Assembly: GCA_051294905.1 (NCBI GenBank)
Contig: CM119372.1
Span: forward strand, 20,338,001-20,402,000
Direction: 5' to 3'
Length of the DNA: 64,000 nucleotides
Source of the DNA: Botryllus schlosseri
Lineage: Eukaryota
Both the position numbers and the translations under genes were made by a program. This document shows positions 241-26,087 of the stretch, in pieces. Numbering within the stretch: position 1 is the first letter of the stretch; every line of letters begins with the position of its first letter. Under the pieces are notes generated by a model. It did not search any database. It was not told the origin of the DNA and was given only the letters and a program-made list of their open reading frames with translations.

Positions 241-478
241 CCGGCGACATTTCGAAACGACCATCGCCACAAGAGATCGGGGTTTCAGTTTGTCATATCG
301 GTAACATTTTGAAACGGTATCGCGCAAAGTTATTGACGTCGATTCAGTTGGTCATATCGGTGATATTTTGAAACGGCGTCACCACAAGGCTATTGACGTC
401 GCTCTCAGTTAGCTGTATCGGTAGCATTTTGAAATTTTCATCACCACAAGACTATTGACATCGATTCAGTTGGTCATG
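241..478. repeat. Tandem repeat, ~60-bp unit, about 4 diverged copies, directly upstream of the orphan ORF
   Basis: Recurring GTCATATCGGT(A/G)A(C/T)ATTTTGAAAC...TATTGACGTCGATTCAGTTG-like units starting at ~292, 351, 412 and 473. Confidence 0.8.
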
Positions 479-757
479 TCAATCCGTTTCACAATCTGTC
501 GTTTTTCAAGTCCCAGCACCATAGTGTTACGACACAGACAAGAAGCGTCGGTGGAAATAATAAAACACGGAAGGCACACTTTGGTGTTATTTGACATGGG
601 TTTTACACCAGACGAACCTCACATTCAAGCGATGTATTTGAATGACGATTGTATTATTGATGTCCAGGCAAAAGAAATGTATCGATTAATTGGTTTCGTA
701 CATATCCAACAAAAACCAGGGTATATGATTGTGCATGGTTCGCATATTCGAGTGTGA
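476..757 (+). CDS. 93-aa orphan protein of Polinton-type element copy A (unknown function)
   Basis: ATG at 476, in-frame TAG upstream at 422. Gapless alignment to ORF 18727-19002(-) gives 50/91 identities by manual count, with many synonymous third-position changes. Confidence 0.65.
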   Translation: MSIRFTICRFSSPSTIVLRHRQEASVEIIKHGRHTLVLFDMGFTPDEPHIQAMYLNDDCIIDVQAKEMYRLIGFVHIQQKPGYMIVHGSHIRV

Positions 758-1574
758 ACGCTCTATTGATATATAGTTCACTTTCACCATCGTGCGAATA
801 ACCCATGTTACGGTTCCATGTTTGTGTGTCTGTATGTCATGCTTCAGATTGACTCAGAGTCATTGCAATGTGGCTTATTGGTATTGTTATCGGGTGACAT
901 TCGATCTACATCAAAGCTACCGGCTATGATAATGTCTGTGGATCTATGTTTGTATACCAACACATTGCATGCAATGTCACACACCTCCATTTACGCGTAT
1001 ACTGGTGTGGGCAAACAAGCGCGACGTATGTCTGGATGGTATTTTTTCGTGGAAACACAGGGTGTAACATGTTTACTTTGAATATTGTTCATTGGTTTAA
1101 CGATTCACAGTTGATATCCGGATCCGGTTACGTACTTTATCAATTCCGATTTCAAACTGAATGTCGAGACATACATTGACCAATAAAGACACAATATAGT
1201 AAACATGCGGGAGGAAAACTCGACCAGGAATTGTTATCGCGATGGGTGACATAAATCCAACCGTTTTCCGAACACCGTTATCCACATACCAACCGTCGTC
1301 AAGGAGGTGTTTTATTCAGACATTTTGACTCTGGAAAATCCAAAGCACGAACCCGGACATCACAGAACTATCGAAGCCTATTGTCCAATTTTCCAAAACA
1401 TGTATTTCGGTGTACAAGAGCATATTGTATGTGGTTAACCGATGATATTGATGTGATACGACCGATGGAGTATACTCTGAAACCGGTAGTCTGTGTATAT
1501 TTCCGTCACTGTTCGTTGTAATCTATTTCAAACTATCGTCAATACAACAAATACCAAATTGTCAGGTGTGTTTG

Positions 1575-2320
1575 TCAGATTTCAAAATGAAAATGGTTTT
1601 GTTACTCTAGGAAAAGCTAGATGACCAAGAGAAAATGTATTGTTACACTGGGTAAACGTCAGATCCCCAAAGGAAAATGATATTTTTACTCAGGTAAACG
1701 ACGCACCACCAAGTGAAAATGGCTTGTTGCTCAGGAAAAAGGTTTGTTACCCGGGGAAAAAGGTTTGTTGCCCAGAGAAAAAATGTATTTCCAAGTGAAA
1801 ATGGTTTGTTGCTCAGTTAAATGATAGTTTCCAGACGAAGGGGGTTTGTTACCCCAGGAGAAAATGATTAGTTACTCTAGGTAAAAGTATTTTTCCAAGT
1901 GAAAATGTATTGTTACACTGGGTAAACGCCGGATCTCCAAAGGAAAATGATATTTTTACTCGGGTAAACGACGGACCCACAAGTGAAAATGGTTTGTTGC
2001 TCAGGGAAAAAGGTTTGTTACCTGGGGAAAAAATATATTTCCAAGTGAAAAAGGTTTGTTGCCCAGAGAAAAAATATATTTCCAAGTGAAAAAGGTTTGT
2101 TAACCAGAGAAAAAATATATTTCCAAGTGAGAAAGGTTTGTTACCCAGAGAAAAAATATATTTCCAAGTGAAAAAAGGTTTGTTAGCCGAGGAAAAAAAA
2201 ATATTTACAAGTGAAAATGGTTTCTTACTCTGGGTAAACGTCAGATCTCCAAAGGAAAATAATATGTTTAGTCAGGTAAACGATGGACTGGCAAGTGAAA
2301 GTGGTAATTTTACATAGGTA
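1575..2320. repeat. Minisatellite, ~42-bp unit built of ~21-bp halves (CCAAGTGAAAAAGGTTTGTTACCCAGAGAAAAAATATATTT), inside copy A
   Basis: Directly visible periodicity; homologous shorter arrays in both arms of copy B. Confidence 0.9.
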
Positions 2321-5300
2321 AACGTCGTTGGTTCAGTGTCGTTGGTCTTGTTAAACGTTATCGCTTGACGTCGGTATACTATTACGAGTGTGAAAAGGCT
2401 ATGCACGTCTTGTGCGGAGTATCGCGACAGTGAACATATTTTTGGTGTGACGAAACAAGATCGTTGTTTACATGTTAATGCATTTCGATTACCGAGTAGC
2501 TGTACAACAGAGAGGAGTCTACAGTTAGTTCGTGCTGTATGTCCCGACGAAAACCACAAGACCACATGTAAATCTATTAGCACAACTCGATGATGTTGAT
2601 ATAGTGTTACTTGAATTAATTATTACCTATTTACACAACATAAAAATAAAAATTCATGTCGTAGTAAGTTTCTTGAACTCATGCTTGATGAAAACGAATG
2701 GTGACAAGTATGCGTTTGTGTTTGAGTGAAAAAAAAATTATTTAGAGTAGTGACAGTTTGTGACCAACGAATGCAAATCGATCATGATATTACAATATAC
2801 GCTTTCGTCAACATAACGACTTGGTGTAGAAATACTTTCACGTTTTTTGAATAACTGGATTCTCGAGACTTGTTACTTGTACGATCTACCGTTGGTGTGC
2901 AAACTATAACGACCATTTTGTATGATAGTATGTTTTAGTTGTCAGGACAACCATACGATGACTCACCACTTTTCGTTAGCAAAGTAGATTGATTTGTGTG
3001 TAAGATGTAAGCACCGTAACTAGAAAACATATGTACTCTGTTGTTGGAGTAGCTATGATTTATTGTTATGACATGGAGATATCCTGAAGCCTTGGTTTGT
3101 TGTCTTACGAAAGATGAAGCGACCTCGGTGTCGTAAATTGTGTTAACTAAACTCGTCCACAATTTTGCTGGACTTACACATGGTATTCGCATACTGTACA
3201 CATACAAACTTTTGTGTAAACAACTCTGATGTTTCTGTTAGTACTAGTTCTGTGTTGAACTATTTGATTATTAAGATACATGAACAACCATTCAGACAAT
3301 AAAGTTCTTGTGACATCGAAACAGTTTGAAAGTGTCACCAATCATTGCGTATATGTTCGTAGCATGAGCGAATGTTTTCGTGTAACATGAATATATTTCA
3401 TATGTCTTCGGTAAGAAATGGGTTATGTGGGATAATAATTAGTATCGTAAACTTGTTGTGTTTGATTGCATACTTTTTTAACATTGTTTGTTGTTGAAAG
3501 ACGGGCGAGTTTACATTTACATTAAGCAGAGCAACTCAAGTAATAAATTTTACTCGTTTGAAAATCGACAACGGAAAAAATACCGATGAATGGAGTAACA
3601 GTAATAATATGTGTGGTATATTATTTTTAGTGATATGCAATCAATCTTTTAGGCATAACTTGTCAAAAATTTATCATGTCATAGTCGGCTGTTATGAATT
3701 GGAAAGAAATGTACTTCGATTATCACGATGATGGAAATTAAGATCAATGCAGTATTTCGGAAATGGATGTGTATCGTTTGGTGTGGTCCCCAGTCACTAA
3801 ATGTCAGTTAGTTAAACGATACATTTACAAGTTTACCGAAATCTTGATTTACAAATAACAGCTTGATGATGTAAAGCTCAACCACGCAAATGTGTTCATT
3901 GCAAAGTATTTGACACAAACAAAATATCGAATGGAGACTTCGGTTTCATTACCAAGCTAGTGAAAATTGTTTTCTGTTGGCCAGGTAGGACACATTTGAC
4001 AAACATCGTCCACATTGTATCTTCGTGATGGTAACGACTTTCAGTGGCTTGGTTTCATGTCGGGAATTATTATTTGAGGGTTCAAGAACAATTTCAATCA
4101 ATACTACAAATGAACAACAATACAAAACACGTTTAGCAAATAACAGTGTAGCAAGTACTTTTTCGATATTACGAGTGTTGAGCACTGGACACTTCTAGTT
4201 GAATTGGATGCATCTAACAAACATATCACAATTTACTTTTGCAATAATCAAAGTCTTAGAGTGTATAACCTCGCGATATTTTACATTTAGCACGCACAAT
4301 GGGGAGTTACTGAAATGATTAAGAATTGATCGCTAGCTTCGAACGGTACTCGATACTCAAAGTGATATTTTCACACTCTGTAAAGTGCATATGTTTAAAT
4401 TCTCTGTCACAAATTCCGACAATAAATCGTTGGATTCAATAGTAACGATATTGTGATATACTGATTCTACACTTAGTCGTTTCAATTACCCGTTGGGAAT
4501 CGGGATAATAAAGCATTTTGTATCGGATGTTCAATGTATGAATACTGGAATTATTACATCTTTAGTGCTGTTTATCGCAAACGATAGATTTTAATAATTG
4601 TACTGATTGTTGAATGTAATAATACCGATATTGTCGTTTCATCTTTAGTCTTGGTTACTGGAAATATTTTCTGATATCCGCGATACGCAGAGTGATTTTT
4701 ACCAAGGTGGAGTAATTTTCCCATCAAGAACATTTCAGACAAGTATAGTTTTACAGCCAAATATGTTAATAACATTGGTACTGAAAAGTTTGTTGCTGTC
4801 ATAACATTTACCACAACGCGGGGTCTAATTAACGCAAATAATTTAATAATCAAGTCATGATCAACTATTACATATGTCAAATCAATGTGTCAATCCTTAT
4901 GTTTACAGCATGATAACTTCGAATATAACACCAGCGTTCGATTGTAAGAAACTACGTTGGTCAGATATTCAAATCTCGTATACTCAAATGTAATGTGTTA
5001 ATCTCAAGTCACCTGCACCGAGTAGAAATTACTTTTATCTTACAAAATATACCGCATAGTAATTTCTTGGTCTTGCGGCATAGTAACGACTTTTACAGTT
5101 GAACAAAAAAGACGAGTTGGTGGTATATGCCTAAAACCGAACTTGATATGTGGGTGATTGTGGGTTGTGATTGTGGGTTGTAGTGATTACTTGTGTAGTC
5201 TTGTCTACTTTTCGTATGGACACTTTTTGCTTTGGTTCGGTGAGTTACAAACGGATTGACTTGACAAGGTTTTTGTATTTTACTCTTTTGTTGATGGCGA

Positions 5301-6689
5301 GATGTTAAAATGTTGAGATGTCATAGTGATAATATTTCTGAAACTCTCTTTGTCAAACGTAAAGACAGGTCGCGAATAGAGTTGTAATGTTTCATTACTT
5401 GTTTCGAATCAATGTGCGTATAATCTCTAAATATGACTGGGTTGAAAGTTGTTAGTCATGTTTGTCAATCTATTTCAATTCAGACTATGTCAAAGTCCAA
5501 ATATTTCATTTTGGATTATCTGGATTTAACTTTAGAACACCGCGCGAATGGATTCCGACGCCGCGCTATACCATTTTTGATGATAAGGACTCGAGGATTT
5601 TCATGATAGAGTTGACAAGTGATAAGATGCGTGTTTTTGTTAAGAGGTTGATTTCAAGTTAATAAAGACAATAACTGTATAATGCGCATACTTGTGATTC
5701 CTGATTCTTGTAGAATTATAGTTGGTATTGATTCTATAGATGTGAAAACGGTGCGAAGTGTCAAAACATATAGCGATCGCGTGCAAGTGACAAATTGTTG
5801 GTTTTCGAATCACGGTCTGTGCTGGTACTGGTATTCATTACTTATTACTTGATAGCAACAACCATCGACATATTACACTGTAGCGACTGGGATGTATGTA
5901 ATGGCAAGACGCGAGAAATGGCTATGTCTTTGGTGTTATCTTGTGAGCGATCGGGGGATTTGTAACCTATTTCACACCTTTTTGAAGTGTTGGTTTGTGA
6001 ACGCGGCTATTGTTGATATTCGAATCACCGTCTACGCCGGCTCTGGGACAAACTAATTACCAAAACATTACCATATGCCAGATTTAGCAAACTATCCCAC
6101 ACCTTTTCGAACTGTTAGTTTGTGAGCGGGGTTATTGCTGATATTCGAATCACCGTCTACGCCGGCTCTGTGGTAAACTAATTACCGAAATATTACGTTG
6201 TCAACGATCGGCATGTATGTAACAGCGAGTCGCGAGCGATGGTTATGTCTTAGGTATTATCTTGTGAGCGGTCGCGGGATTTTACCAATATTTCACACCT
6301 TTTTGAATAAGCGTTCACTTCACAAAGGATTAGGGTTAGAGCGGAAATAAGTGGCAATTTGTCGCTATTCAAGTTACCGACACTGGCGGTCTGTTATTCG
6401 TTACATATTAAATCTTACGACTGAAATCAAGCTCTGTCCCAAACTGCTTACGAAAATTTCACCGCGTGAGTGATCGATATGCCTGTAACATCAAGTCGCG
6501 TATGTCTGAGACATTATCTTGTCAGCGATCGCAGGGTTTGCAAACTATTTCACACCTATTTGGAGTGTTAATATGTGAACGCGGCTATTGTTGGTATTGG
6601 AATCGCCGTCTACGCCGGCTCCGTGGTAAACTAATTACCAAGCGACTGATTCCTAGATTTAGCAAACTATTTCACACCCTTTTTGGTGA

Positions 6690-7140
6690 AAGTACGACAT
6701 ACCGCTAGCATTCTATCAACGAAAGTACGAATCATCGCCGCACCCATAAGAATAACGATATATCGAAGTCGCATTCACCGCAAACGTTGGGATTAACTCG
6801 AATCGGTCATATTTAATAATTTGTAATATACACATTAACTAAGAATCAATCACGTGACTATTTACTATTCCTGATACCTATTCAACGCCGTGCGAGATAT
6901 GCCTGAAAGTGCGAATCACGACCACGAGTTCTCATTACGATTCACCGCCGCAGCCTATACCTGAAAGTACGAGTCACGACCCCGAGTTTTCAATACGAGT
7001 CACCGCCGCAGCCTATACCCGAAAGTACGAATCACGACCGCACCCATAAGAACCCATTACGAGTCACCACCACAAGGGGGGTCTGAAAGTACGAGTCACC
7101 ACCCCCGGTTTTCAATACGAGTCACCACCCCGCCATAAGA
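6690..7140. repeat. Subterminal direct repeats (GAAAGTACGA(A/G)TCAC... motif) of copy A
   Basis: GAAAGT(A/G)CGA recurs at ~6689, 6721, 6905, 6963, 7021, 7085, just inside the ACTACT end. Confidence 0.75.
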
Positions 7141-7436
7141 ACCCCTGCCACCTCACGACCGATCTACATAACTACTATTGTTACATCACAAATATTTTGA
7201 CCGCAAACGAAACGATCACAGTTGACGATGTCGTACCAGTAGCAGATTAATCTAATAGCAATGTGTCTAAGTTTCTTAGACGACTCAATACTTACGTTGC
7301 GCATTGCTCAGTTTTGCCAACCCTCTTGTATGATTTAAATCGAACAAATATAGTCTGTGCGTTTATATTCTTACGGATGTGTAGATGGGTAGTGTAGTCC
7401 AGTGCTCTTCAACCGGGGTTTTCGTACACCCTAGGG

Positions 7437-8396: not shown

Positions 8397-8999
8397 CCCT
8401 AGGGTGTACCAGAATTTTCAAAGGGTGTACCACTCGGATGGGGTGTACAGGGGTGTACCAGATCCGAAATACGATGGCTAGCTATCACACAGGCAGGTTT
8501 ATGCGTCAGTAGGCCTACAGGTTGACGCACTGGTTAATGAGCAATATGGTAGTGCTCTTCAACCGGGTGTTTCGTACACCCCACGGTGTACCCTTATTTG
8601 TAAAGCGTGTACCACTCGGATCGGGTCTACAGGGGTGTACCAGATCCACATTATGATGAACCGATGATACGATGACTATAGCTATCACATTAAATACGCC
8701 AGTTTATGCTTCAAAACAGATTGACTGGATGCGTAATATAGTACAATGTGATGTCATAAGCAAATGTTTCTAATCATTTAACTTTTGGTAATGGACTTAA
8801 TACTGCCTTTTCGAGTAGAGTAGGGTAGAGTTAAGCATGTGTTCAGCTTGCGATATCTGTCTGATGATTCTCGAGGAAACCACCGCTACAGCACGGACAT
8901 TTTGAATTGGTGCTTCCTGCGGCCAGCTTATGAATAGCGCAGGATACATGAGTAGTTAGTATGATCGCTCGTGACGGGCCATTGGTTCTTATGGATGCA

Positions 9000-9310
9000 C
9001 CCGACCGGTGCCGCGAAACTCGTCCTGAACCGGTGACCCTTTCAGACCCCCCTTCCACCCGACCGGTGCCTGGGTTGGTATAGGCATCTCTCGACCGGTA
9101 ACCCTTTTCGGTATAGGGATCACTCGACCGGTGCCTCGAAACTCGTCTTGAACCGGTAACCCTTTTCGGTATAGGGATCACTCAACCGGTGCCTCGAAAC
9201 TCGTCTTGAACCGGTGACCATTTTCGGTATAGGGATCACTCAACCGGTGCTAGCATAGCCATCTCTCGACCGGTAACACTATTCGGTATAGGGATCACTC
9301 AACCGGTGCC
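9000..9310. repeat. Subterminal ACCGGT-containing tandem repeats (~59-bp unit), mirrored at ~25728-26040
   Basis: Repeated ACCGGT(G/A)...CGGTATAGGGATCACTC(A/G)ACCGGTGC. Confidence 0.85.
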
Positions 9311-12300
9311 GTGGTGGTAATTCGTACTTTCGGGTATAGTCAACTCTCGCGCTGTGTTGAAGAAGTATCAGGAATAGTAAATAGTCACGTGATTGATTCT
9401 TAGTTAATGTGTATATTACAAATTATTAAATATGACCGATTCGAGTTAATCCCAACGTTTACGGTGAGTACGACAATGATATATCGTTATTTTTATGGCG
9501 GGGGTGGCATGCGGCTATTGTGTCTTATGGGTGCGGCCGTGAATCGCCCTTTCGGGTATAGGTATCTCTCGCCCGGTGTTGAATATGTATCAAGTAAATA
9601 GTCATGTGATTGGTCCTTAGTTAATGTGTATATTCCAAATTACGGCGAGTACGACAATGATATATCGTTATTCTTATGGACGCGGCGATGATTCGTACTT
9701 TCGGGTATAGACTGCAGGCGGAATGTCGTACTTTCAACAAAAAAGGCGTGAAAATAGTTTGCTAAATCTAGGAATCAGTCGCATGGTAATGTTTGGGTAA
9801 TTAGATTACCACAGTACCGGCGTAGACGGCGATACGAATATCAACAATAACCGCGTTCACAAACTAACACTTCAAATAGGTGTGAAATATATAACGAACC
9901 CCGCAATCGCCCACAAGATAATGTCTCGGACATAACCATCTTTAGTGAGTTAGTGTTACAGGGATATCGATCACTCACGCGGTGAAATTTTCGTAAGCAG
10001 TTTGGCACAGAGCTTGATTTCACTCGTAAGATTTAATAAGTAACGAATAACAGACCGCCAGTGTCGGTAACTTGAATAGCGACAAATTGTCACTTATTTC
10101 CGCTCTAACCCTAATCCTTTGTGAAGTGAACGCTTATTCAAAAGGGTGTGATATCATTTTCAAATCCAACGACCACTCACCGGATAATGCTTCAGACAAT
10201 CCCTCATACCCGCTCACAAGGTAATATTTCGGTAATTAGTTTGTCACAGAACCGGCGTAGACGGTGATCGAAAACCAACAATTTGACGCTTTCTGGTGGT
10301 CGCTATATGTTTTGACACTTCGAACAGTGGCTGAATTTAGTTGCACGCTAAGAATTATGAGAATATTCAATCAATGTGTCAATTTGTCAACTTGAAATGA
10401 AACTTACTACACAACTCAAGTTGATTCGTGTCTGAATGTGTTAATTCGGTACAATTCTGATTATTTTGAGAAATCTTTTGATTCGACCGTAACCCGAATA
10501 TTACTGACGCCGACTTTCAGCCGCATCGAATTATTCGCACATTCCGCGCCGCTGTTTTCACACTTATAGAATCAATACCAACTATAACTCTACAAGAATC
10601 AAGAATCACAAGTATGTGCATTATACAGTTATTGTCTTTATCAACACGAAATCAAACTCGTAACAAAAACACGCAACTAATCATTTGTCAGCTCTAACAT
10701 TATCAAAAAATTCCAGTATTGTTGATTGAAAATCCTCGAGTCCTTGTTATCAAAAAGGTTGTAGTACGGTGTCGGAATCCATTCGCGGGGTGTACAAAAG
10801 CTAAATCCAGATAATCCAAAATGAAATATTTGGACTTTACCATAGTGTGAATTGAAATAGGATTGACAAACATGACTACCAACTTTGATCCAGCCACATT
10901 TCAAGATTATACTTTGAAACAAGTAATGTAACATTACAACTCTATTCACGATCCTGCTTTCCGTTTGTCAAAGAGATATTTTAACATCTTACCATACTCA
11001 AAAGAATTATTCACAACATTAACAATTGTTAAAAATCTAGTTTTCACTTACTTGATTATATCACTGCAACTCATAAATTTGAATTAATTCATCCTGGTTG
11101 TATTCGTATGCTCGGTCTTTTTTATTCAATTGTAAAGGTTGTTACTATTCTGCAGACAAAGTATTTACTAATCGGTGCATATACGATTTGACTTGGACAT
11201 ATTATATTTTGAGTATACGAGATTTGAATGTCTGAACAATAACTGAGAATTAATTTATCACAATTAAATCCGTATATTACAGCGTAAAAGATATTGGGAT
11301 GTCAGCAACTCTTTACGGTCGTAGTTACAACCACATTAACTAATCTACCCAGGCAACTCGTCATGATCATTCCTGAAATCAACACTAACACGACCACTGA
11401 CTTGAGTTAACCGCGAAACAGCATCAAGTTTTAAACCCGCTTACAGCTGACGGATTATTCGAATGCATCGATGGAGAATATTATTGAACTCGTCGGTATT
11501 GTCACTTCAACAAATTACACCGACTGCGAAAGTTAATATCGAATGGTAAGACTTGATCACATATTTGTTGATCACAGACATGACAAAAAAACATTACCGA
11601 GATTTTATAAACTAGTCATATTACTCTACACATCTATCAATATCAAAATGTGAGTCATCCAATTTTTCTACTAAAGTAACATTTCACTTTCGGATTCGGA
11701 TTCGGTATAGTCATACAAATTGTATTAAATCCAACATCAAAACAAAAGGAATTTTTCAGTTTATTGAAATCAAATCATTCGTCTTCGACTTGTGCTTTTT
11801 TTAGATTACCCGCGACAATTCGTTTCGAGTGAGTTGTAACCAAAGTCAAGGTATCTTTGTGTCCACAGATATGGAAGATGAATATAGCTAACACAATCAC
11901 GAATCGACGTTTCAGAGTATTTCACGGGTGTAATAAACTTGTTAGTGTCGCCTATCTCAAAGTACGCACGCGTTCGATTTCCATACCGACTGTTTCGATG
12001 TTTAGGATTCACTTACAATAACCACGGGTGAGGATTTAACATCGATGTCGTTACTGTCGGAATTTGTGACAGAGAATTGAAACATATGCACTTTACAGAG
12101 TATGAAAATATCACTTTGAGTATCGAGTACCGTTCGAAGCTAGCGATCAATTCTTAATCATTTCAGTAACTCCCCATTGTGCGTACTAAATGTAAAATAT
12201 CGCGAGGTTATACACTCTAAGACTTTGATTATTGTAAAAGTAAATTGTGATATGTTTGTTAGATGCATCCAATTCAACTAGAAGTGTCTAGTGCCCAACA

Positions 12301-12516
12301 CTCGTAATATCAAAAAAGTACTTGCTACACTGTTATTCACTAAACGTGTTTTGCATTGTTGTTCATTTCTAGTATTGATTGAAATTGATTTTGAACCCTC
12401 AAATAATAATTCCCGACATGAAACTAAGCCGCCGAAAGTCGTCACCATCACAAAGAAACAATTAGCACGATGATTACTAAATGTGTCCTATAGTTAGGTG
12501 TACTGGAATTATTTGT

Positions 12517-12547
<31 letters not shown>

Positions 12548-14204
12548 GATCAGAGAAATTGGAAATTTTTCCGTTGTCATTCGCTAAAGTAAATGTCATC
12601 ACAATACTCTGTCACTAAAAGACGTTACTTGGACGTGCTTGAATTCTAGACGTAGTTCTGATTTACCCAACACAAGACCCAAGGACAACCCTAGTTTCAG
12701 CCGAACACAGATATCCAAAATATCACACACTTCGCTATTCCTAAAGCACAAACACACGATACAAAATAATACTTGTTGTGTTGTTGCGGCATCATCACTC
12801 AACAATATCACCCTCAATACAAATGATGTTTATATGTAACATGCTATTGATTTGAACCACACCCACCTGACGGAAGAGGATTTACTCAATCTTTACAAAA
12901 TGGATATTGACCAACATCACATCACCGGATTGTATCTGTTTCGTTGGATACGAGTTATGTTAGTTTAACAGTAAACAAATTTCACCCTCTTGGATTATGA
13001 ACTCAATGCGTTAGCAGTCATTCAATATTTTGTTTGTGTCAACTAGTTACTTGGTATGTTACTCCACAACTCTTACAAAAGTACGAAGGATATTAACATC
13101 GCACTAAGTAATTAACTTTACTCGATATTCTCGCATTACGAAACTAGAGAATGGTTGGTTAGACTCTACAAACTGTTTCGATATCACAAGACCTTTATGG
13201 TCTGAATGGGTGTCCATGTGTCTTAAGAACCAAATAGTTCAACACAGCACTAGCACCAACAGAAACATCAGAGTTGTTTACACAAAAGTTTGTATGTGTG
13301 CAGTATGCGAATACCATGTGTAAGTCCAGCACAATTGTGGTATCCATCCGGGTTTAGTTAACACAATTTACGACACCGAGGTCACCTCATCTTTCGTAAG
13401 ACAACAAACCAACCAAGGTTTCAGGATATGTCCATGTCATAGCAATAAATCAGCTACTCCAACAACAGAATACATATGTTTTCTAGTTACGGTGCTTACA
13501 TCTTACACACAAATCAATCTACTTTGCTAACAAAAAGTGCTGGGTCATCAAGTGATTGACCTAACAACAAAACAGCTAAACGTACTATCATACAAAATGG
13601 TCGTTATAGTTTGCACACCAACGGTACATCGTACAAGTAACAAGTCTCGAGAATCCAGTTATTCAAAAACGTGAAAGTATTTCTACACCAAGTCGTTATG
13701 TTGACGAAAGCGTTTATTGTAATATCATGATCGATTTGCATTCGTCGGTCGCAAAATGTCACTACTCTAAATAATTATTTTTCACTCAAACACAAACGCA
13801 TACTTGTCACCATTCGTTTTCATCAAGCACGAGTTCAAGAAACTTACTTACTACGACATGAATTTTTATTTTTATGTTGTGTAAATAGTTAATAATTAAT
13901 TCAAGTAACACTATATCAACATCATCGAGTTGTGCTAATAGATTTACATGTGGTCTCGTGGTTTTCGTCGGGACATACAACACGAACTAACTGTAGACTC
14001 CTCTCTGTTGTACAGCTACTCGGTAATCGAAATGCATTAACATGTAAACAACGATCTTGTTTCGTCACACCAAAAATATGTTCACTGTCGCGATACTCCG
14101 CACAAGACATGCATAGCCTTTTCACACTCGTAATAGTATACCAACGTCAAGCGATAACGTTTAACAAGACCAACGACACTGAACCCGCGACGTTTAACTA
14201 TGTA

Positions 14205-14665
14205 AAATTACCATTTTCACCTGGAGGCCTGCCGTTTCCTGTAGTAACAAACCTTTTTCACTTGGAAATATATTTTTTCTCTGGTTAACAAACCTTTTTC
14301 ACTTGGAAATATATTTTTTCTCTGGGCAACAAACCTTTTTCACTTGGAAATATATTGTTTCTCTGGTTAACAAACCTTTTTCACTTGGAAATATATTTTT
14401 TTTCATTAACAACAAACCATTTTCACTTGGTGGTCCGTCGTTTACCCGAGTAAAAATATCATTTTCCTTTGGAGATCCGGCGTTTACCCAGTGTAACAAT
14501 ACATTTTCACTTGGAAAAATACTTTTACCTAGAGTAACTAGTCATTTTCTCCTGGGTAACAAACCCCTTTCGTCTGGAAAACTATCATTTGCCTGAGTAC
14601 CAATACCGTTTTCACATGGAAATCTATCTTTCACCAGGGTAACAATATCATTTTCGTTTTGAAAA
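14205..14665. repeat. ~42-bp minisatellite in the left arm (mirror copy ~20380-20840)
   Basis: Repeated AACAAACCTTTTTCACTTGGAAATATATTTTTTCTCTGG. Confidence 0.85.
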
Positions 14666-15244
14666 CTGACAACCACACCGGACAATTTGATATTTTTGTA
14701 TATTGTTACAACGGACAGTGACAAAATACACACCAACAACGACGCCGATACATTTGTCTAATCAAATATTCACTTGCTCTGATGCACCCCATCAAAATCA
14801 TTGGTTACTCACATACAATAACAATGTGCTGTTGTACATCGACATGTATGTTTTCGGAATTGGCGAATAAAGGGGTTTCCGATATGTCCGTGATGTCCGG
14901 GTTCGTGCTTTGGATTTTCCAGAGTCAAAATGTCTGAATAAAACACCTCCTCGACTTTGGTAACTGGTTGATAAATGGATAGTGGTGTTCGCACAACGGG
15001 TGAAGTTATGTTCCCCATCGCGCTAACAACTCCGGGTACTTGTGAGTTTCCTCAGGTCTGTTTACTATATTGGGTCTTTACTGATCAATACATATTGCTC
15101 CAGTCAGCTGAAACCGGATCACTAATATGTGTGTGGGGGCCTGATCCGGATATTCACTCATGAACCAAAGACCAATATTCAAGTAAACATGTTACAGACC
15201 GTGTTTTGTCTCCATGAAAAATACCAATGCATACACCATCACAT

Positions 15245-18200
15245 TATAGATAACTAAGGTAAACCGTAGATGCGACACTCGCGAGCATCACGTAACGTCA
15301 CGCTCCAATTATACTCTACGGCACTGTTGTTGTTTTGCTTGGCGCTTATGCAGCAGGAGGCAGATTTCAGGATTAGGATGGTAATATCTATCCATGGGGT
15401 ATGTTTAGCGAGTAGCTGCTCCGTATGGTTACTAACCGAGCTTATTGGATCCATGCTACACAATCTGTGCTAGGAAAACGAGCAATCGAATACAATTTTA
15501 AAGTCAATAAATACGGCTGCCCGAAGCGGATTTCCAGTATCTCAAGATTGAAGTTCCTTGGTGTAAGGTGTCGCATTGAAAGTGATGACTCGGACGTCTA
15601 ATAATCTATCCGCATTTCAGCTGACGCAGTCTCGATCCCTTCAAATTCTGTAGATACCGGTCTGTTGCTTAACATGGAATCACGCCGTATCTAATAACAA
15701 TAGGAATTTTTATTACTTGACAGACGATTATTTGTTTGAATCTAATTGCAACTGTTGCGACTTGGCCTAGGCAGGCAGATTTGATTGAGACTACTCACTG
15801 CTGATCTTATTCAAGATCTGCTGAATAATGTACAATGATATGGAGGACAGGAGAGTGACGACAAGGAAGCAAGTGGCAACTGGTGATAACTGATAAGAGT
15901 CTGGAACCTAGTGCATTGCTCAGAATAGCCACAATACTACTGCCTACCATCTATCTTCATTCAATAAGTCTGTAATGGAATCAGGCTGTCCCAATGCGGC
16001 AAGCAGAAGATTGATGGAAGTCGATGTGAATTTCAGTCGAAGCAGGTGATAACGCAGAAGCATTTCACGCATGGGACTATTTCTATGAAAGTTTATCAAG
16101 GATCAAATTTATCAAACGTTTTGCTCGGCACAATGAAGCTAATGAGTCCAGTCAAAGAAGAAGAAACTTTAAGGAGGAAAATTTTGTGCGTTGTGAGCAA
16201 AAGTCTTCACTACATTGCATGGGCACTTTCAACAACACATGTGGCCCTCTCGGAGGAGAACACCGCGGTTTGGAAATTGTAAAATCTGCATTGCAATTTC
16301 CAACCACGTGGCTCCTTCATTTCATTTATGAAGAGGAAGGCTTGGCCAAATATTCATATTTTGGAGGCAAACAAACCCGATACTGAAGTAGAAATGATGT
16401 TAATTTCATCTCAAACGCAAGTAAAAGTAGCGATTTCCAATAAGGCTGAGTTTAGAAGTAGTCAAATATCATAACCATGCTAGTAAGTCTTACAAGTAGG
16501 TTACTTGAGTACTTTGAAAAAGTAGAAGTATTTCGTCACTATCCACCTGTTGGAATCTGCCAAAATATATCTGACTGTGACATAACCAACAGTCCATGTG
16601 TTTCTGTTTTATGTGCCATATTTCGTGATTTATTTTCTATATCATCATGAAGGAAGCAATAAAATGCGATTTTACCAAATTTGTCTCACCTGGGAGAGCC
16701 TAACAAGGATTACAGAACCGAATCAATGGTCATAAGTCACAGAGTAAGGGAGTGTCTATATTTCCATCAAACCGAAATACATAACAAATAAGGCAGCATC
16801 AATAACGACATGGAAGATATAGCCTACACATGCGCAATACTAGGATAGGAATGAGTGATGTGACCTTATCATTCAACTTGTCGGATCACACCCACATCAA
16901 ACATGTTGTACACTGTCTCATCTGATTGTATAACTAGTCATAAACATATATGATTAGAATAATGTAAGGGTTAAGTAGGTTAACAGTAATGATATGACGA
17001 CAAGATGAAGATTTTCTACATCCATCATACGACTGTTCACGGATATATGTTGTGACAGTGAATTACAAATGAGAGACCCCGAGTGGACAATAGATTTCGA
17101 GCCAGGTTACTATTAGATGCAGATAACTATAGATTTGCCCGTTGACAACGATCTTGTAGTATGAGAGTGAAAATATTTGTGTGTAACTATTATCTTGTAG
17201 AATTCAATGCTTAATGAGGGTAGGTGACAATCTGGTACGTAGAGGTGCTCCTACATCTGAAAGCAGACGGGCTGCGAATCCCGCCGGTTGAACTGCATGT
17301 TTTGAAAATACTGGGTGTCAAAAATATGGCAAATAGAAGCCGCCTTACGGTAACAAATCATCCAGTTAAATTATGACAAATGTGAAAAATCATTTCACTG
17401 ACAGCTTAAACGATGAAATTGACATTGCGCTGATTTTATGGAGTTTTGTGCTTCTGAGATAAATTCCAGCGGTGATTTGGATATCTGACTGTGGAGTTAC
17501 GCTAGTCACTCCATCATGCAGGCATTCATTGAGTCTCTTTGGCAAAGCTGTGCAATAATAGAGGGATCATCAATGATGTTACGTAGGTCTTATGTCACAC
17601 AAATTTCACAACCTTTACTTTCATCCTCTTCGACTGGACTCAGCATCGTCATTTAGTTTCATTTTGTCGAGAAGAAACTTGGTCCTTGATAAATTTTTAT
17701 AGAAATAGTCCCATGCATGAAATGCTTGGTGGGATCACCAGCTTTGACTAAAATTCGTACCAAAATCCATCAATTTTTTGCTTGTCATATTCGGATAGCG
17801 TGATTCCATTACTGACTTCTTGAATGAAGATAGCTGGTAGGTGGTATGATAGTGACCCTTGTATAAATTTCATATCCAGCAACCACTTGCTTCTTTGCCA
17901 TCATTGTCCTCTATGTCATTGGACATTATACAGCAGATAACATGGTCAGTGAGCAGTGACTTTCAATCAAATCCACCTTCATCGGCCAAGTCACAACGGT
18001 TACAAGTAGATTCAAAGAATTTATCCTCTGTCAAGTATAACAATAATTCCTATTACTACAAGGCGCGATTCCATGCTAAGCGGCATGACGGTATCTACAG
18101 AATTTTAAGGGGCCGAGCCCGCGTCAACTGAAATGCGGTTTCTTATTCTGATTGATATTATACCAACACGTCATTAGTAGTATAATTACTTTCAATACGA

Positions 18201-18521
18201 CACCTCGGAACTTCTATCTATAGAGAAACAAGAAACACGCTTCGGGCAGCCGTATTTAATGGCTTCAAAGTTGTATTCGATTGCTCGTTTTCCTAGCACA
18301 GATTGTGTAGCATGGATCCAACAACCTTGGTTAGTAACCATACGGAGCAGCTACTCGCTAAACATACCCCATGGATAGATATTGCCATCCTAATGCTGAA
18401 ACCTGCCTCTTGCTGCATAAGCGCCAAGCAAAACAACAACAGTGCCGTAGAGTATAATTGGAGCGTGACGTTACGTAATGCTCGCGAGTGTCGCATCTAC
18501 GGTTTACCTTAGTTATCTATA
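15245..18521. mobile_element. Foldback DNA element with long TIRs and 7-bp TSD (possibly P/Galileo-like), no recognisable transposase
   Basis: Termini TATAGATAACTAAGGTAAACC / GGTTTACCTTAGTTATCTATA; TSD ATCACAT (15238-15244, 18522-18528). The empty site is present in the right arm at ~19795-19810. Outer ~280 bp near-identical; diverged inverted similarity continues ~0.9 kb inward. Superfamily assignment is an inference from TSD length. Confidence 0.85.
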
Positions 18522-18726
18522 ATCACATACAAGTAACGTCACGATTGTTCACAAGTATTCGCGTAAACGAGGTGTACATACAATGTGTCGGTGTACAAAC
18601 ATCATGGAAAACAAATTCATGTTCTCAAGTATCATCATGCGACGACTCTGTACATTCAATGTGGGCATAGATGACACACGACATGATACAATGGACAGTG
18701 CATTATGTATACCGATATATTCTCAG

Positions 18727-19002
18727 TCAAATATGCGAACCGTGTACTATCACGCATCCCGATTTTCGCTGAATATCCACAACACCAACAAATCTGTACA
18801 TTTCTTTTCCCTCGACCTCGACGATAGAGTTGTCATCCCAATGTACCAATCGAGTGTATGGTTCATCAGGTGTAAAATCCAAATCAAATGTCACCAAGGT
18901 ATCGTTTTTCATTTTCAATATTTCCACCGCTGCATCTTGTCTGTGTCGTAAAACAACGGTGTGGGGCCAGAGGAATCTATGGACAGTTACGCGTAGTCCC
19001 AT
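18727..19002 (-). CDS. 91-aa orphan protein in the unique core of copy B (unknown function)
   Basis: Intact ATG-TGA ORF, homologous without gaps to ORF 476-757 (shared VLRHRQ, FTPDEP, KEMYR, IVHGSHI motifs). Confidence 0.65.
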   Translation of the reverse strand: MGLRVTVHRFLWPHTVVLRHRQDAAVEILKMKNDTLVTFDLDFTPDEPYTRLVHWDDNSIVEVEGKEMYRFVGVVDIQRKSGCVIVHGSHI

Positions 19003-19651
19003 ATTTACTCGTGGATATACTCAGGTAACGACAACGCTTTCTCAGCGGTCTGCGTGGGTGAACCGTTTCAATACGTAGCTGGATCAACTAGACCAAAAGT
19101 TTCCAACCGTGATTTATGTTGACCTGTCGAGTTACGAGATAGCACCCTCTTGCGGTGTGATTAACACGAAATAAGCCTTCAACTCACAGAGACACACCTT
19201 GGAGTACATTATCTAATCGTAATCGAACTCGAGATTCACACACACACAGAGTCCCTGTTTACGATTTCAATCCGGAGTCACTGCTCACGATGTTTATCTG
19301 TAGTCGTTATGTGGGAGTAGCGACATCCGACATATTCATCGCGTGAAAGATTGATAACGACGGTGATCGCCAAATACATAAAATTAGGTGAAACACTGCG
19401 GTCTCAGCAAAAAAGTTTGCAGGTTAGGACGACCAATACGTGGAGGGATTGAGCGAGTTACGCAACCCGATTATGTCGAAGTCTGGATCGCGATACAAGT
19501 CTACCTGAGAATCCGAACAATCTTGCAAAATCAAGGTGTGAACCCGTGAAAGAACTGTACTCGTGTGAGGTTCATTTTTCACAAGTTGGGTGGAGGTCGA
19601 TTCATACTAAGATCGTGTTACGTCCAATTATGGCAGCTTGTCTGTCCCCAA

Positions 19652-22600
19652 GTCATCTATGCCCACATTGAATGTACAGAGTCGTCGCATGATGATACTT
19701 GAGAACATGAATTTGTTTTCCATGATGTTTGTACACCGACACATTGTATGTACACCTCGTTTACGCGAATACTTGTGAACAATCGTGACGTTACTTGTAT
19801 GTGATGGTGTATGCATTGGTATTTTTCATGGAGACAAAACACGGTCTGTAACATGTTTACTTGAATATTGGTCTTTGGTTCATGAGTGAATATCCGGATC
19901 AGGCCCCCACACACATATTAGTGATCCGGTTTCAGCTGACTGGAGCAATATGTATTGATCAGTAAAGACCCAATATAGTAAACAGACCTGAGGAAACTCA
20001 CAAGTACCCGGAGTTGTTAGCGCGATGGGGAACATAACTTCACCCGTTGTGCGAACACCACTATCCATTTATCAACCAGTTACCAAAGTCGAGGAGGTGT
20101 TTTATTCAGACATTTTGACTCTGGAAAATCCAAAGCACGAACCCGGACATCACGGACATATCGGAAACCCCTTTATTCGCCAATTCCGAAAACATACATG
20201 TCGATGTACAACAGCACATTGTTATTGTATGTGAGTAACCAATGATTTTGATGGGGTGCATCAGAGCAAGTGAATATTTGATTAGACAAATGTATCGGCG
20301 TCGTTGTTGGTGTGTATTTTGTCACTGTCCGTTGTAACAATATACAAAAATATCAAATTGTCCGGTGTGGATGTCAGTTTTCAAAACGAAAATGATATTG
20401 TTACCCTGGTGAAAGATAGATTTCCATGTGAAAACGGTATTGGTACTCAGGCAAATGATAGTTTTCCAGACGAAAGGGGTTTGTTACCCAGGAGAAAATG
20501 ACTAGTTACTCTAGGTAAAAGTATTTTTCCAAGTGAAAATGTATTGTTACACTGGGTAAACGCCGGATCTCCAAAGGAAAATGATATTTTTACTCGGGTA
20601 AACGACGGACCACCAAGTGAAAATGGTTTGTTGTTAATGAAAAAAAATATATTTCCAAGTGAAAAAGGTTTGTTAACCAGAGAAAAAATATATTTCCAAG
20701 TGAAAAAGGTTTGTTGCCCAGAGAAAAAATATATTTCCAAGTGAAAAAGGTTTGTTAACCAGAGAAAAAATATATTTCCAAGTGAAAAAGGTTTGTTACT
20801 ACAGGAAACGGCAGGCCTCCAGGTGAAAATGGTAATTTTACATAGTTAAACGTCGCGGGTTCAGTGTCGTTGGTCTTGTTAAACGTTATCGCTTGACGTT
20901 GGTATACTATTACGAGTGTGAAAAGGCTATGCATGTCTTGTGCGGAGTATCGCGACAGTGAACATATTTTTGGTGTGACGAAACAAGATCGTTGTTTACA
21001 TGTTAATGCATTTCGATTACCGAGTAGCTGTACAACAGAGAGGAGTCTACAGTTAGTTCGTGTTGTATGACCCGACGAAAACCACGAGACCACATGTAAA
21101 TCTATTAGCACAACTCGATGATGTTGATATAGTGTTACTTGAATTAATTATTAACTATTTACACAACATAAAAATAAAAATTCATGTCGTAGTAAGTAAG
21201 TTTCTTGAACTCGTGCTTGATGAAAACGAATGGTGACAAGTATGCGTTTGTGTTTGAGTGAAAAATAATTATTTAGAGTAGTGACATTTTGCGACCGACG
21301 AATGCAAATCGATCATGATATTACAATAAACGCTTTCGTCAACATAACGACTTGGTGTAGAAATACTTTCACGTTTTTGAATAACTGGATTCTCGAGACT
21401 TGTTACTTGTACGATGTACCGTTGGTGTGCAAACTATAACGACCATTTTGTATGATAGTACGTTTAGCTGTTTTGTTGTTAGGTCAATCACTTGATGACC
21501 CAGCACTTTTTGTTAGCAAAGTAGATTGATTTGTGTGTAAGATGTAAGCACCGTAACTAGAAAACATATGTATTCTGTTGTTGGAGTAGCTGATTTATTG
21601 CTATGACATGGACATATCCTGAAACCTTGGTTGGTTTGTTGTCTTACGAAAGATGAGGTGACCTCGGTGTCGTAAATTGTGTTAACTAAACCCGGATGGA
21701 TACCACAATTGTGCTGGACTTACACATGGTATTCGCATACTGCACACATACAAACTTTTGTGTAAACAACTCTGATGTTTCTGTTGGTGCTAGTGCTGTG
21801 TTGAACTATTTGGTTCTTAAGACACATGGACAGTGTCCAATCAGACCATAAAGGTCTTGTGATATCGAAACAGTTTGTAGCGTCTAACCAACCATTCTCT
21901 AGTTTCGTAATGCGAGAATATCGAGTAAAGTTAATTACTTAGTGCGATGTTAATATCCTTCGTACTTTTGTAAGAGTTGTGGAGTAACATACCAAGTAAC
22001 TAGTTGACACAAACAAAATATTGAATGACTGCTAACGCATTGAGTTCATAATCCAAGAGGGTGAAATTTGTTTACTGTTAAACTAACATAACTCGTATCC
22101 AACGAAACAGATACAATCCGGTGATGTGATGTTGGTCAATATCCATTTTGTAAAGATTGAGTAAATCCTCTTCCGTCAGGTGGGTGTGGTTCAAATCAAT
22201 AGCATGTTACATATAAACATCATTTGTATTGAGGGTGATATTGTTGAGTGATGATGCCGCAACAACACAACAAGTATTATTTTGTATCGTGTGTTTGTGC
22301 TTTAGGAATAGCGAAGTGTGTGATATTTTGGATATCTGTGTTCGGCTGAAACTAGGGTTGTCCTTGGGTCTTGTGTTGGGTAAATCAGAACTACGTCTAG
22401 AATTCAAGCACGTCCAAGTAACGTCTTTTAGTGACAGAGTATTGTGATGACATTTACTTTAGCGAATGACAACGGAAAAATTTCCAATTTCTCTGATCGT
22501 GTGTGTGTGTGTGTGTGTTTTACAAATAATTCCAGTACACCTAACTATAGGACACATTTAGTAATCATCGTGCTAATTGTTTCTTTGTGATGGTGACGAC

Positions 22601-25600
22601 TTTCGGCGGCTTAGTTTCATGTCGGGAATTATTATTTGAGGGTTCAAAATCAATTTCAATCAATACTAGAAATGAACAACAATGCAAATCACGTTTAGTG
22701 AATAGCAGTGTAGCAAGTACTTTTTTGATATTACGAGTGTTGGGCACTAGACACTTCTAGTTGAATTGGATGCATCTAACAAACATATCACAATTTACTT
22801 TTACAATAATCAAAGTCTTAGAGTGTATAACCTCGCGATATTTTACATTTAGTACGCACAATGGGGAGTTACTGAAATGATTAAGAATTGATCGCTAGCT
22901 TCGAACGGTACTCGATACTCAAAGTGATATTTTCATACTCTGTAAAGTGCATATGTTTCAATTCTCTGTCACAAATTCCGACAGTAACGACATCGATGTT
23001 AAATCCTCACCCGTGGTTATTGTAAGTGAATCCTAAACATCGAAACAGTCGGTATGGAAATCGAACGCGTGCGTACTTTGAGATAGGCGACACTAACAAG
23101 TTTATTACACCCGTGAAATACTCTGAAACGTCGATTCGTGATTGTGTTAGCTATATTCATCTTCCATATCTGTGGACACAAAGATACCTTGACTTTGGTT
23201 ACAACTCACTCGAAACGAATTGTCGCGGGTAATCTAAAAAAAGCACAAGTCGAAGACGAATGATTTGATTTCAATAAACTGAAAAATTCCTTTTGTTTTG
23301 ATGTTGGATTTAATACAATTTGTATGACTATACCGAATCCGAATCCGAAAGTGAAATGTTACTTTAGTAGAAAAATTGGATGACTCACATTTTGATATTG
23401 ATAGATGTGTAGAGTAATATGACTAGTTTATAAAATCTCGGTAATGTTTTTTTGTCATGTCTGTGATCAACAAATATGTGATCAAGTCTTACCATTCGAT
23501 ATTAACTTTCGCAGTCGGTGTAATTTGTTGAAGTGACAATACCGACGAGTTCAATAATATTCTCCATCGATGCATTCGAATAATCCGTCAGCTGTAAGCG
23601 GGTTTAAAACTTGATGCTGTTTCGCGGTTAACTCAAGTCAGTGGTCGTGTTAGTGTTGATTTCAGGAATGATCATGACGAGTTGCCTGGGTAGATTAGTT
23701 AATGTGGTTGTAACTACGACCGTAAAGAGTTGCTGACATCCCAATATCTTTTACGCTGTAATATACGGATTTAATTGTGATAAATTAATTCTCAGTTATT
23801 GTTCAGACATTCAAATCTCGTATACTCAAAATATAATATGTCCAAGTCAAATCGTATATGCACCGATTAGTAAATACTTTGTCTGCAGAATAGTAACAAC
23901 CTTTACAATTGAATAAAAAAGACCGAGCATACGAATACAACCAGGATGAATTAATTCAAATTTATGAGTTGCAGTGATATAATCAAGTAAGTGAAAACTA
24001 GATTTTTAACAATTGTTAATGTTGTGAATAATTCTTTTGAGTATGGTAAGATGTTAAAATATCTCTTTGACAAACGGAAAGCAGGATCGTGAATAGAGTT
24101 GTAATGTTACATTACTTGTTTCAAAGTATAATCTTGAAATGTGGCTGGATCAAAGTTGGTAGTCATGTTTGTCAATCCTATTTCAATTCACACTATGGTA
24201 AAGTCCAAATATTTCATTTTGGATTATCTGGATTTAGCTTTAGTACACCCCGCGAATGGATTCCGACACCGTACTACAACCTTTTTGATAACAAGGACTC
24301 GAGGATTTTCAATCAACAATACTGGAATTTTTTGATAATGTTAGAGCTGACAAATGATTAGTTGCGTGTTTTTGTTAAGAGTTTGATTTCGTGTTGATAA
24401 AGACAATAACTGTATAATGCACATACTTGTGATTCTTGATTCTTGTAGAGTTATAGTTGGTATTGATTCTATAAGTGTGAAAACAGCGGCGCGGAATGTG
24501 CGAATAATTCGATGCGGCTGAAAGTCGGCGTCAGTAATATTCGGGTTACGGTCGAATCAAAAGATTTCTCAAAATAATCAGAATTGTACCGAATTAACAC
24601 ATTCAGACACGAATCAACTTGAGTTGTGTAGTAAGTTTCATTTCAAGTTGACAAATTGACACATTGATTGAATATTCTCATAATTCTTAGCGTGCAACTA
24701 AATTCAGCCACTGTTCGAAGTGTCAAAACATATAGCGACCACCAGAAAGCGTCAAATTGTTGGTTTTCGATCACCGTCTACGCCGGTTCTGTGACAAACT
24801 AATTACCGAAATATTACCTTGTGAGCGGGTATGAGGGATTGTCTGAAGCATTATCCGGTGAGTGGTCGTTGGATTTGAAAATGATATCACACCCTTTTGA
24901 ATAAGCGTTCACTTCACAAAGGATTAGGGTTAGAGCGGAAATAAGTGACAATTTGTCGCTATTCAAGTTACCGACACTGGCGGTCTGTTATTCGTTACTT
25001 ATTAAATCTTACGAGTGAAATCAAGCTCTGTGCCAAACTGCTTACGAAAATTTCACCGCGTGAGTGATCGATATCCCTGTAACACTAACTCACTAAAGAT
25101 GGTTATGTCCGAGACATTATCTTGTGGGCGATTGCGGGGTTCGTTATATATTTCACACCTATTTGAAGTGTTAGTTTGTGAACGCGGTTATTGTTGATAT
25201 TCGTATCGCCGTCTACGCCGGTACTGTGGTAATCTAATTACCCAAACATTACCATGCGACTGATTCCTAGATTTAGCAAACTATTTTCACGCCTTTTTTG
25301 TTGAAAGTACGACATTCCGCCTGCAGTCTATACCCGAAAGTACGAATCATCGCCGCGTCCATAAGAATAACGATATATCATTGTCGTACTCGCCGTAATT
25401 TGGAATATACACATTAACTAAGGACCAATCACATGACTATTTACTTGATACATATTCAACACCGGGCGAGAGATACCTATACCCGAAAGGGCGATTCACG
25501 GCCGCACCCATAAGACACAATAGCCGCATGCCACCCCCGCCATAAAAATAACGATATATCATTGTCGTACTCACCGTAAACGTTGGGATTAACTCGAATC

Positions 25601-26087
25601 GGTCATATTTAATAATTTGTAATATACACATTAACTAAGAATCAATCACGTGACTATTTACTATTCCTGATACTTCTTCAACACAGCGCGAGAGTTGACT
25701 ATACCCGAAAGTACGAATTACCACCACGGCACCGGTTGAGTGATCCCTATACCGAATAGTGTTACCGGTCGAGAGATGGCTATGCTAGCACCGGTTGAGT
25801 GATCCCTATACCGAAAATGGTCACCGGTTCAAGACGAGTTTCGAGGCACCGGTTGAGTGATCCCTATACCGAAAAGGGTTACCGGTTCAAGACGAGTTTC
25901 GAGGCACCGGTCGAGTGATCCCTATACCGAAAAGGGTTACCGGTCGAGAGATGCCTATACCAACCCAGGCACCGGTCGGGTGGAAGGGGGGTCTGAAAGG
26001 GTCACCGGTTCAGGACGAGTTTCGCGGCACCGGTCGGGTGCATCCATAAGAACCAATGGCCCGTCACGAGCGATCATACTAACTACT
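19652..26087 (+). repeat. Right inverted arm of copy B (6436 bp)
   Basis: Begins GTCATCTATGCCCAC (reverse complement of 18661-18675) and ends ACTAACTACT followed by the TSD. Confidence 0.95.

Follow-up and report, generated by a model that had tools for sequence, protein, structure and literature searches.

Mavericks, or Polintons, are recognized in the account of PMC8097293 by (AGT)2//(ACT)2 ends and by perfect 6-bp target duplications, and their lengths are given as 11-19 kb (PMC8097293, PMC3014272). These sources take purifying selection to indicate that the elements go through a phase of replication and reinfection. The argument is set out in PMC8097293 for the core genes, with retroviral env cited as a parallel, and the core genes of cyprinid Polintons are assigned a dN/dS of ~0.001 (PMC8097293, PMC3014272). 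Virions of animal Polintons have not been observed, according to the abstract of PMC8097293. Accessory genes reported for adintoviruses include Bcl2, IAP, Oncoid and a set of conserved unknowns termed 'Adintoc' (PMC8502044).

The stretch of Botryllus schlosseri DNA analyzed here (64,000 nucleotides of contig CM119372.1, hereafter the window) contains two foldback elements, A and B, of 13.7-13.9 kb. Each consists of two ~6.3 kb arms and a ~1 kb loop that holds a small open reading frame (ORF; Table 1). This ORF is an orphan Polinton accessory gene that is under selection and marks many helper-dependent foldbacks; its role is predicted only. Gene integrity, purifying selection, Polinton ends, the lack of core genes, occurrence in two Polinton groups and pairing with a Bcl-2 gene are the directly observed features on which this statement draws.

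Table 1. Features of foldback elements A and B, with positions counted from the first nucleotide of the window.
Feature	Position	Strand	Remarks
Loop of element A, partial	1..850		1,044 bp in full; remainder and left arm precede the window
Orphan ORF, copy A	476..757	+	93 aa; within loop of element A
Right arm of A	851..7176	-	6.3 kb; 99.95% identical to left arm of A; ACTACT end
Target duplication at right end of A	7177-7182		6 bp
Target duplication of B	8945-8950 and 26088-26093		6 bp; flanks element B
Foldback element B	8951..26087		17.1 kb; 13.85 kb without nested insert; AGTAGT...ACTACT ends
Left arm of B, outer part	8951..15244	+	99.7% identical to right arm
Nested foldback in left arm of B	15245..18521		3.3 kb; unrelated
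Left arm of B, inner part	18522..18675	+	154 bp; 100% identical to 19652-19805
Central loop of B	18676..19651		976 bp; houses the ORF
Orphan ORF, copy B	18727..19002	-	91 aa; within loop of element B
Conserved non-coding block upstream of ORF B	19275..19355	-	~80 bp; 83% alike to window 25-102
Right arm of B	19652..26087	-

Element A measures 13.7 kb overall, with its left half lying before the window. The left arm of B is internally repetitive, with 41/42-bp and 58-bp units, and it holds pieces of the terminal repeat of the Polinton group P432. The foldback nested in this arm has its own ~0.9-kb inverted repeats (76% alike) and a 7-bp duplication, or a 5-bp one if its ends extend one base further. 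It contains no homologue of the ORF and matches none of the Polintons and palindromes with which it was compared. Because the short segment between this insert and the loop is the inner arm end that the insert has split off, the loop of B sits between symmetric arms, and a flip-flop inversion of the loop, an idea raised by the opposite directions of the ORF in A and B, was rejected. Across the genome, the ORF lies in a loop of 0.85-1.07 kb between arms that are 95-100% identical within the copy at 54 of 60 loci. The arms of different copies are often 5-15% apart, whereas those within one copy are ~100% identical (L001-L060), which suggests that both arms may be copied from one template or homogenized during replication.

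The preliminary description, made from the letters of the window, had aligned ORFs of 91 and 93 aa without gaps and counted 50 of 91 identical residues; we recovered both ORFs and the same count. The 86 nucleotide differences between them fall on codon positions 1, 2 and 3 in the proportion 31/17/38 (pS 0.52, pN 0.26, dN/dS 0.35; Fisher p = 1.4e-4), in agreement with its remark that many changes are synonymous, and the remaining five frames have 1-6 stops in each copy. It had also called the ORF the only coding sequence conserved between A and B. Among the 15 stop-free frames of at least 40 codons in gapless A-B blocks (13 blocks, 2,502 bases), the ORF is indeed the sole one with a clear synonymous excess (p = 4e-5); the runner-up (p = 0.008) is located within a 41-bp tandem repeat and is not significant over 15 tests. 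The further claim that the flanking DNA has diverged is right for the loop. It does not hold for the arms, which are 66-94% alike at the DNA level and locally exceed the ORF itself (73% over 248 bp) in conservation, nor for the non-coding block 5' of the ORF, which may have a promoter-like role. A short motif ~25-45 bases past the stop codon is common to B, L083, L091, L098, L102 and P425 and is a possible 3' signal.

Several ways of extending or replacing this gene were tried and rejected. Alternative genetic codes yield no convincing longer gene, and the ORF is not an exon of one, since its start and stop codons are in register across families despite unrelated flanks. No longer relative occurs among 2,918 candidates, which is weak evidence. 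An antisense frame (18583-18951) is closed in copy A. With the standard code, the entire window has one stop-free frame of at least 150 aa. This frame (7385-7921 on the plus strand, 178 aa) has no Pfam match, part of it resembles a C-terminal motif of hAT transposases, and it is probably a remnant of a degraded transposon. Another four palindromic elements, which are smaller and old and have different ends, are located at 40760-41395, 49075-50728, 53613-54616 and 55578-56133.

Both A and B have AGTAGT...ACTACT ends and a perfect 6-bp target duplication. The same ends and duplications are present in 6 of the 11 elements examined, the other five being interrupted, unresolved or bounded by different ends. 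The terminal repeat of P432 matches B at 97% over 138 bp and A at 79% over the first 53 bp, so that these elements have terminal sequence in common with a complete Polinton present in this genome, as a non-autonomous Polinton derivative should. No polymerase, integrase, ATPase, capsid or protease gene is found in A or B, where protein-level matches to a complete Polinton are also absent. The earlier designation of A and B as Polinton-type copies is therefore apt for their ends and not for their gene content: they are non-autonomous foldbacks with Polinton ends, not Polintons proper.

Searched over 495.5 Mb in 219 contigs, the genome yields 1,202 ORF candidates, which are first-look matches and not a copy number; the best 150 were scored. 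Dispersed copies with perfect duplications point to probable mobilization of the foldbacks in trans by helper enzymes. The foldbacks are 11-17 kb long and the helper Polintons 16.5-19.4 kb, and a length of 11-17 kb that includes repeat-rich filler and comes near that of the helper fits a packaging constraint. Double palindromes of 27-29 kb do not fit it. These palindromes (L127-L129, L136-L138) have arms that are themselves palindromic, carry four Bcl-2 and two ORF copies and show 6-bp target duplications. Foldbacks might be packaged in helper capsids, as the similarity in length and the purifying selection described below indirectly suggest.

With a more distant relative of the ORF as query, palindrome families of 11-29 kb were found that have the ORF in both arms, mostly next to a Bcl-2 gene (PF00452, E about 1e-21). 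At the protein level nothing but the ORF links A/B to six other palindrome families, which were themselves found via the ORF. A sample of 20 half-palindromes chosen by Bcl-2 is independent of the ORF: 12 of them carry it, and it was not found in the other 8, one of which may not have been fully covered. The idea that the ORF is universal in palindromes was dropped on this count.

The genome contains at least five capsid groups of complete Polintons (148 matches), and the absence of any match to the Pfam polymerase and capsid profiles in it is thus a false negative. A profile search detects a distant homologue of the ORF in group P504 (34-37% identity, E 2e-12). There it lies in a polymerase-bearing element, where the capsid gene cluster ends, on the same strand as the protease and 155 bp 3' of it. 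The homologue is 1.8-1.9 kb from the capsid match in 21 of 21 capsid matches of the group, and two of the elements that bear it have the same ends and 6-bp duplications as A and B. In this group the ORF adjoins the terminal repeat and extends partly into it; copies of the P504 type form inverted pairs, and many are broken.

Five stretches of group P425 that have a polymerase are without the ORF. Two other stretches, chosen because the ORF was near them, are without the polymerase and its flanks, and a 2.2-kb cassette of ORF and Bcl-2 replaces 5.3 kb there. Over about 0.7 kb, this cassette shares 97-99% identity with the palindrome families C4b and C10. Judged by eye, ORF and Bcl-2 occur 6-12 kb from the capsid gene in ten places; the ORF is far from the capsid genes and on the opposite strand. 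One polymerase-less P425 Polinton (G000:C1:8322169-8348969; L167-L169) has ATPase, integrase, capsid and protease frames together with the cassette, and it harbors a nested B-type foldback; there are about ten such P425 places.

No homologue of the ORF was detected in P431 (2 stretches), P443 (2 stretches) or P432, the group whose terminal repeat is shared with A and B (5 stretches, three of which span both terminal repeats, one of those being without polymerase). The ORF is absent from 13 of 14 polymerase-bearing stretches and from one polymerase-less P432 copy, and the Polinton backbones in 17 stretches showed no ORF of the A/B type. A 9.4-kb P432 copy at L271-L272 (G000:C7) has the two terminal repeats as well as ATPase, integrase, capsid and protease, and neither polymerase nor ORF. 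In 7 Polinton stretches with 2,478 frames, the ORF profile matches only stand-alone homologues and no polymerase, integrase, ATPase, capsid, protease or PX/PZ/PW-type frame, and the same is true in 17 stretches. It is accordingly not a fragment of a Polinton core gene. The accessory protein proposed in the preliminary description agrees with the distribution observed, which is that of a Polinton accessory gene: present in some complete lineages (all 21 in P504), outside the core set and absent from others (P431, P432, P443 and the polymerase-bearing P425 stretches).

In a protein tree P504 occupies a long branch, and loop-type and Bcl-2-arm-type copies are interleaved with weak support, a pattern that could fit cassette swapping. 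Death, BIR, caspase-like, UBC and Bcl-2 cargo is carried in the outer zones of the Polintons of this genome, and the capsid proteins of the helper groups are only 32-69% alike. P431 (L163-L165, G000:C11:4506703-4526063) has Death-domain, BIR, caspase-like and ubiquitin-conjugating genes and, after the protease, three small beta-rich orphans; P443 has Bcl-2, UBC and related orphans.

Purifying selection on the ORF, which had been proposed from the A-B pair, extends to the wider family. The A-B value of dN/dS is well below 1 and not near neutrality, and values between subfamilies are mostly 0.1-0.35 (55 pairs), with a few pairs at 0.4-0.54 and one close pair at 1.5. Frequent frameshifts would have spoken against such selection; among 30 B-type loops chosen by non-coding DNA, and so independently of the ORF, 24 copies are intact, 3 have a stop, 1 is frameshifted and 2 have no ORF in the locus. 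Variants shared among 26 distinct gap-free B-type copies comprise 18 synonymous and 10 non-synonymous changes (pN/pS 0.08-0.21, p < 0.001), compared with 10 synonymous, 19 non-synonymous and 3 stops for private variants (pN/pS 0.62, p = 0.15). The contrast between the two classes is significant (p = 0.019); a pooled set of 86 B copies, in which repeated loci were not removed, was left out. In the families sampled by protein similarity, pN/pS of shared variants is 0.21-0.37 for A, 0.16-0.25 for P504 and 0.32-0.48 for C, and the private-shared contrast is not significant (p = 0.34, 0.12 and 0.77, respectively). Shared variants of the ORF are thus purified, and private ones are near neutral or not clearly purified. 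Because of this difference, selection most likely acts during replication, on replicating lineages of the helper-dependent family, with decay after insertion.

AlphaFold2 (27 sequences) predicts a domain of nine strands and no helix for the ORF protein (pLDDT 86.3, pTM 0.77; four of five models above 79), in keeping with the beta-rich fold anticipated earlier. A homodimer prediction without alignment gives no answer (score 0.00). The family, which had not been recognized from its translation, has no significant match in Pfam or PHROGs, and none among PDB sequences at E < 0.1; for A, B and the relatives P0002-4, no Pfam family exceeds the cut-off. A Foldseek search of PDB and BFVD gives nothing at E <= 0.001, although the absence of a listed match does not show that the fold is new. 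A 5.8-billion-sequence search returns four matches, all 68-93% identical, and none when the P504 homologue is the query. A 1.84-billion profile search returns P0003 and two repeat-inflated chance matches, and viral and metagenome contigs give no match. The ESM Atlas yields only HK97-capsid-type leads below 0.9 for B and nothing for the P504 homologue. Two relatives, P0001 and P0003, have near-identical counterparts among the families of this genome; for P0002 and P0004, identity to the scored matches in it does not exceed 74% and 80%, respectively, and these two may come from related hosts.

RNA reads on the ORF are very few and from both strands: the 1.7 kb around copy B has 18-51 reads in 3-6% of four RNA runs. 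No RNA holder of the ORF is on record among the indexed runs. Along a P425 stretch the ORF bins have a depth of at most 1.5, like the core genes, compared with 3-7 for Bcl-2 in a bulk run and 16-38 for a left-end gene. In L167, seven RNA reads from three runs skip 5,960 bases (1027 to 6988) with CT..AC ends, which implies a GT-AG intron on the minus strand of the Polinton.

The preliminary description had named helper replication, packaging and host defence as possible fields of action. We tentatively favor the reading, which falls a little short of an even chance, that the ORF is a selectively maintained Polinton/Maverick accessory gene whose predicted beta-sandwich product binds a host cell-death or innate-defence protein. 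A complete Polinton would supply the polymerase and the integrase for copying and inserting the foldbacks; its group is probably P432, whose terminal repeat also occurs in them. Selection on a trans-acting gene would need a phase in which one lineage dominates the cell, whether by amplification or by arrival in a helper capsid, and the lineage that makes the diffusible product would have to gain more than its neighbors. The ORF would be expressed mainly in this helper or amplification phase, and its putative target would be a host protein, such that the cell copying the element survives. A host target is suggested by the exchange of the same gene between elements with different helpers and by its travel with anti-death cargo. 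That the target could belong to cell death or defence is suggested by its helper-agnostic distribution, its movement with Bcl-2 and its place among Death, BIR, caspase-like and UBC cargo. Other observations run against a host-defence role. In the P425 stretch Bcl-2 is transcribed and the ORF shows no more signal than the core genes, which suits a role in the helper phase as well or better. The position of the ORF behind the protease in P504 would suit a virion or late gene. The ORF is also dispensable, since it is missing from 8 of the 20 Bcl-2 half-palindromes, from most polymerase-bearing stretches and from a P432 copy without polymerase.

The product might instead serve satellite 'piracy', switching a helper Polinton on or biasing replication or packaging toward its own element, a possibility that we consider real and yet, on balance, unlikely. 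Enrichment of the ORF in helper-dependent elements, its absence from P432 (0 of 5) and from 13 of 14 polymerase-bearing stretches, its status as the sole gene of the A/B families and its near silence in resting tissue, like that of the core genes, all agree with such a factor. So does its arrival exactly where P425 lost the polymerase, although the two copies concerned were chosen because the ORF was near. A piracy factor is harder to reconcile with fixation of the ORF in the complete P504 group (21/21), with a gene that rides with the ends of different helpers whose capsid proteins are so dissimilar, and with a protein that is basic but has no match to a nucleic-acid-binding fold. A broader and, in our opinion, doubtful proposal is that an animal genome contains a large, diverse class of capsid-less polintovirus satellites that, in the manner of phage satellites, retain and exchange a selected gene module of their own. 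The 91-aa protein, possibly with a new fold, would then be the factor with which they hijack a helper that has no gene for it, and the selection would be the footprint of satellite DNA carried in helper virions.

That the protein is a minor optional virion component (a decoration, spike tip or entry aid) which the satellite adds to helper capsids is improbable. It is small and all-beta and follows the protease on the same strand in P504, a position that is taken in P431 and P443 by different small beta-rich orphans. However, it has no shaft or repeat, the viral structures in BFVD or PDB do not match its model, the P425 copy is far from the capsid genes and on the other strand, and no homology to the other small orphans is detected (hhalign E 0.11-0.72). 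Quite improbable, too, is a passenger status, in which selection would operate only in autonomous parents and foldbacks would inherit the ORF because it is near an end. The position of the ORF at the terminal repeat of P504, the inverted pairs of that group, many of which are broken, and the Bcl-2 palindromes that are without the ORF could be understood in this way. In A/B, however, the ORF is 6.3 kb from either end within a loop whose DNA is otherwise not alignable, shared variants are purified inside the B family, and no A/B-type ORF is seen in the Polinton backbones. Least credible is a diverged small heat-shock (alpha-crystallin/CS) domain that acts as a chaperone for element proteins, which we regard as highly improbable. 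HSP20/CS domains are the top fold matches of both models (Foldseek E 5e-3; VIA-align Z 5.2 with rmsd 3.6 over 65 aligned residues, and Z 5.0 with rmsd 3.8 over 61), but these are weak matches, with Z below the level that the tool treats as meaningful. TM-scores do not exceed 0.41, rmsd is 3.6-3.8 over 61-72 residues, and Pfam HSP20 is not matched at E <= 1.

Binding of a host protein thus remains the reading that we prefer, and if it is true, the foldbacks would rank as satellites, with a gene of their own, of an animal virus. That helper-dependent elements of 11-17 kb maintain a trans-acting gene under selection is in itself an indirect sign of a phase in which a lineage gains from what its own gene makes, as in virus satellites. 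The analysis also names the 91-aa, well-modelled ORF protein as a new family among the accessory proteins of animal Polintons. The openly accessible full texts searched, among them bioRxiv 10.1101/2024.01.15.575659, describe neither giant foldback satellites of Polintons that bear a gene nor the ORF protein.

Compared with Polintons/Mavericks, A and B are alike in their ends, 6-bp duplications and length (11-19 kb); they differ by having no polymerase, integrase, ATPase, capsid or protease and by arms of 6.3 kb where Polintons have a few hundred bases. The dN/dS of the ORF (0.1-0.35) stands against the ~0.001 reported for cyprinid core genes in PMC8097293 and PMC3014272. Like the adintovirus accessory genes presented in PMC8502044, the ORF is a small gene outside the core set that occurs in the outer zones of animal Polintons, with anti-apoptotic cargo next to it. 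No sequence link to a named accessory family was found, and the ORF may equal an Adintoc group; the consulted text of PMC8502044 does not describe retention of such genes in non-autonomous foldbacks. In structure, a further comparison is with the small all-beta sandwich of the vaccinia A46 N-terminal domain (PDB 4zj9, 5ezu), of which 51-53 residues align at an rmsd of 1.9-2.3 with a VIA-align Z of 3.3-4.1, below the meaningful level of the tool. Matches to HSP20/CS and A46 (Z 3.3-5.2) have no sequence support, and no function can be transferred from these modelled folds.

The foldback transposons FB of Drosophila and Galileo and the elements A and B all have long, internally repetitive inverted repeats. 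Foldbacks of the FB/Galileo type have the 7-11-bp target duplication of P/Mutator-type transposases. In A and B, by contrast, the 6-bp duplications, the ends and the terminal-repeat sequence point to Polintons, and the loop holds a selected orphan gene and not a transposase. Non-autonomous transposons normally shrink and lose genes. Viral satellites with genes of their own, such as phage PICI and PLE, virophages and transpovirons (some of this ground is covered in PMC11296320), need a helper to replicate or to be packaged and have nevertheless retained small genes whose products act on the host or the helper. The elements A and B differ from these viral satellites in that their helper would be an integrated animal Polinton.
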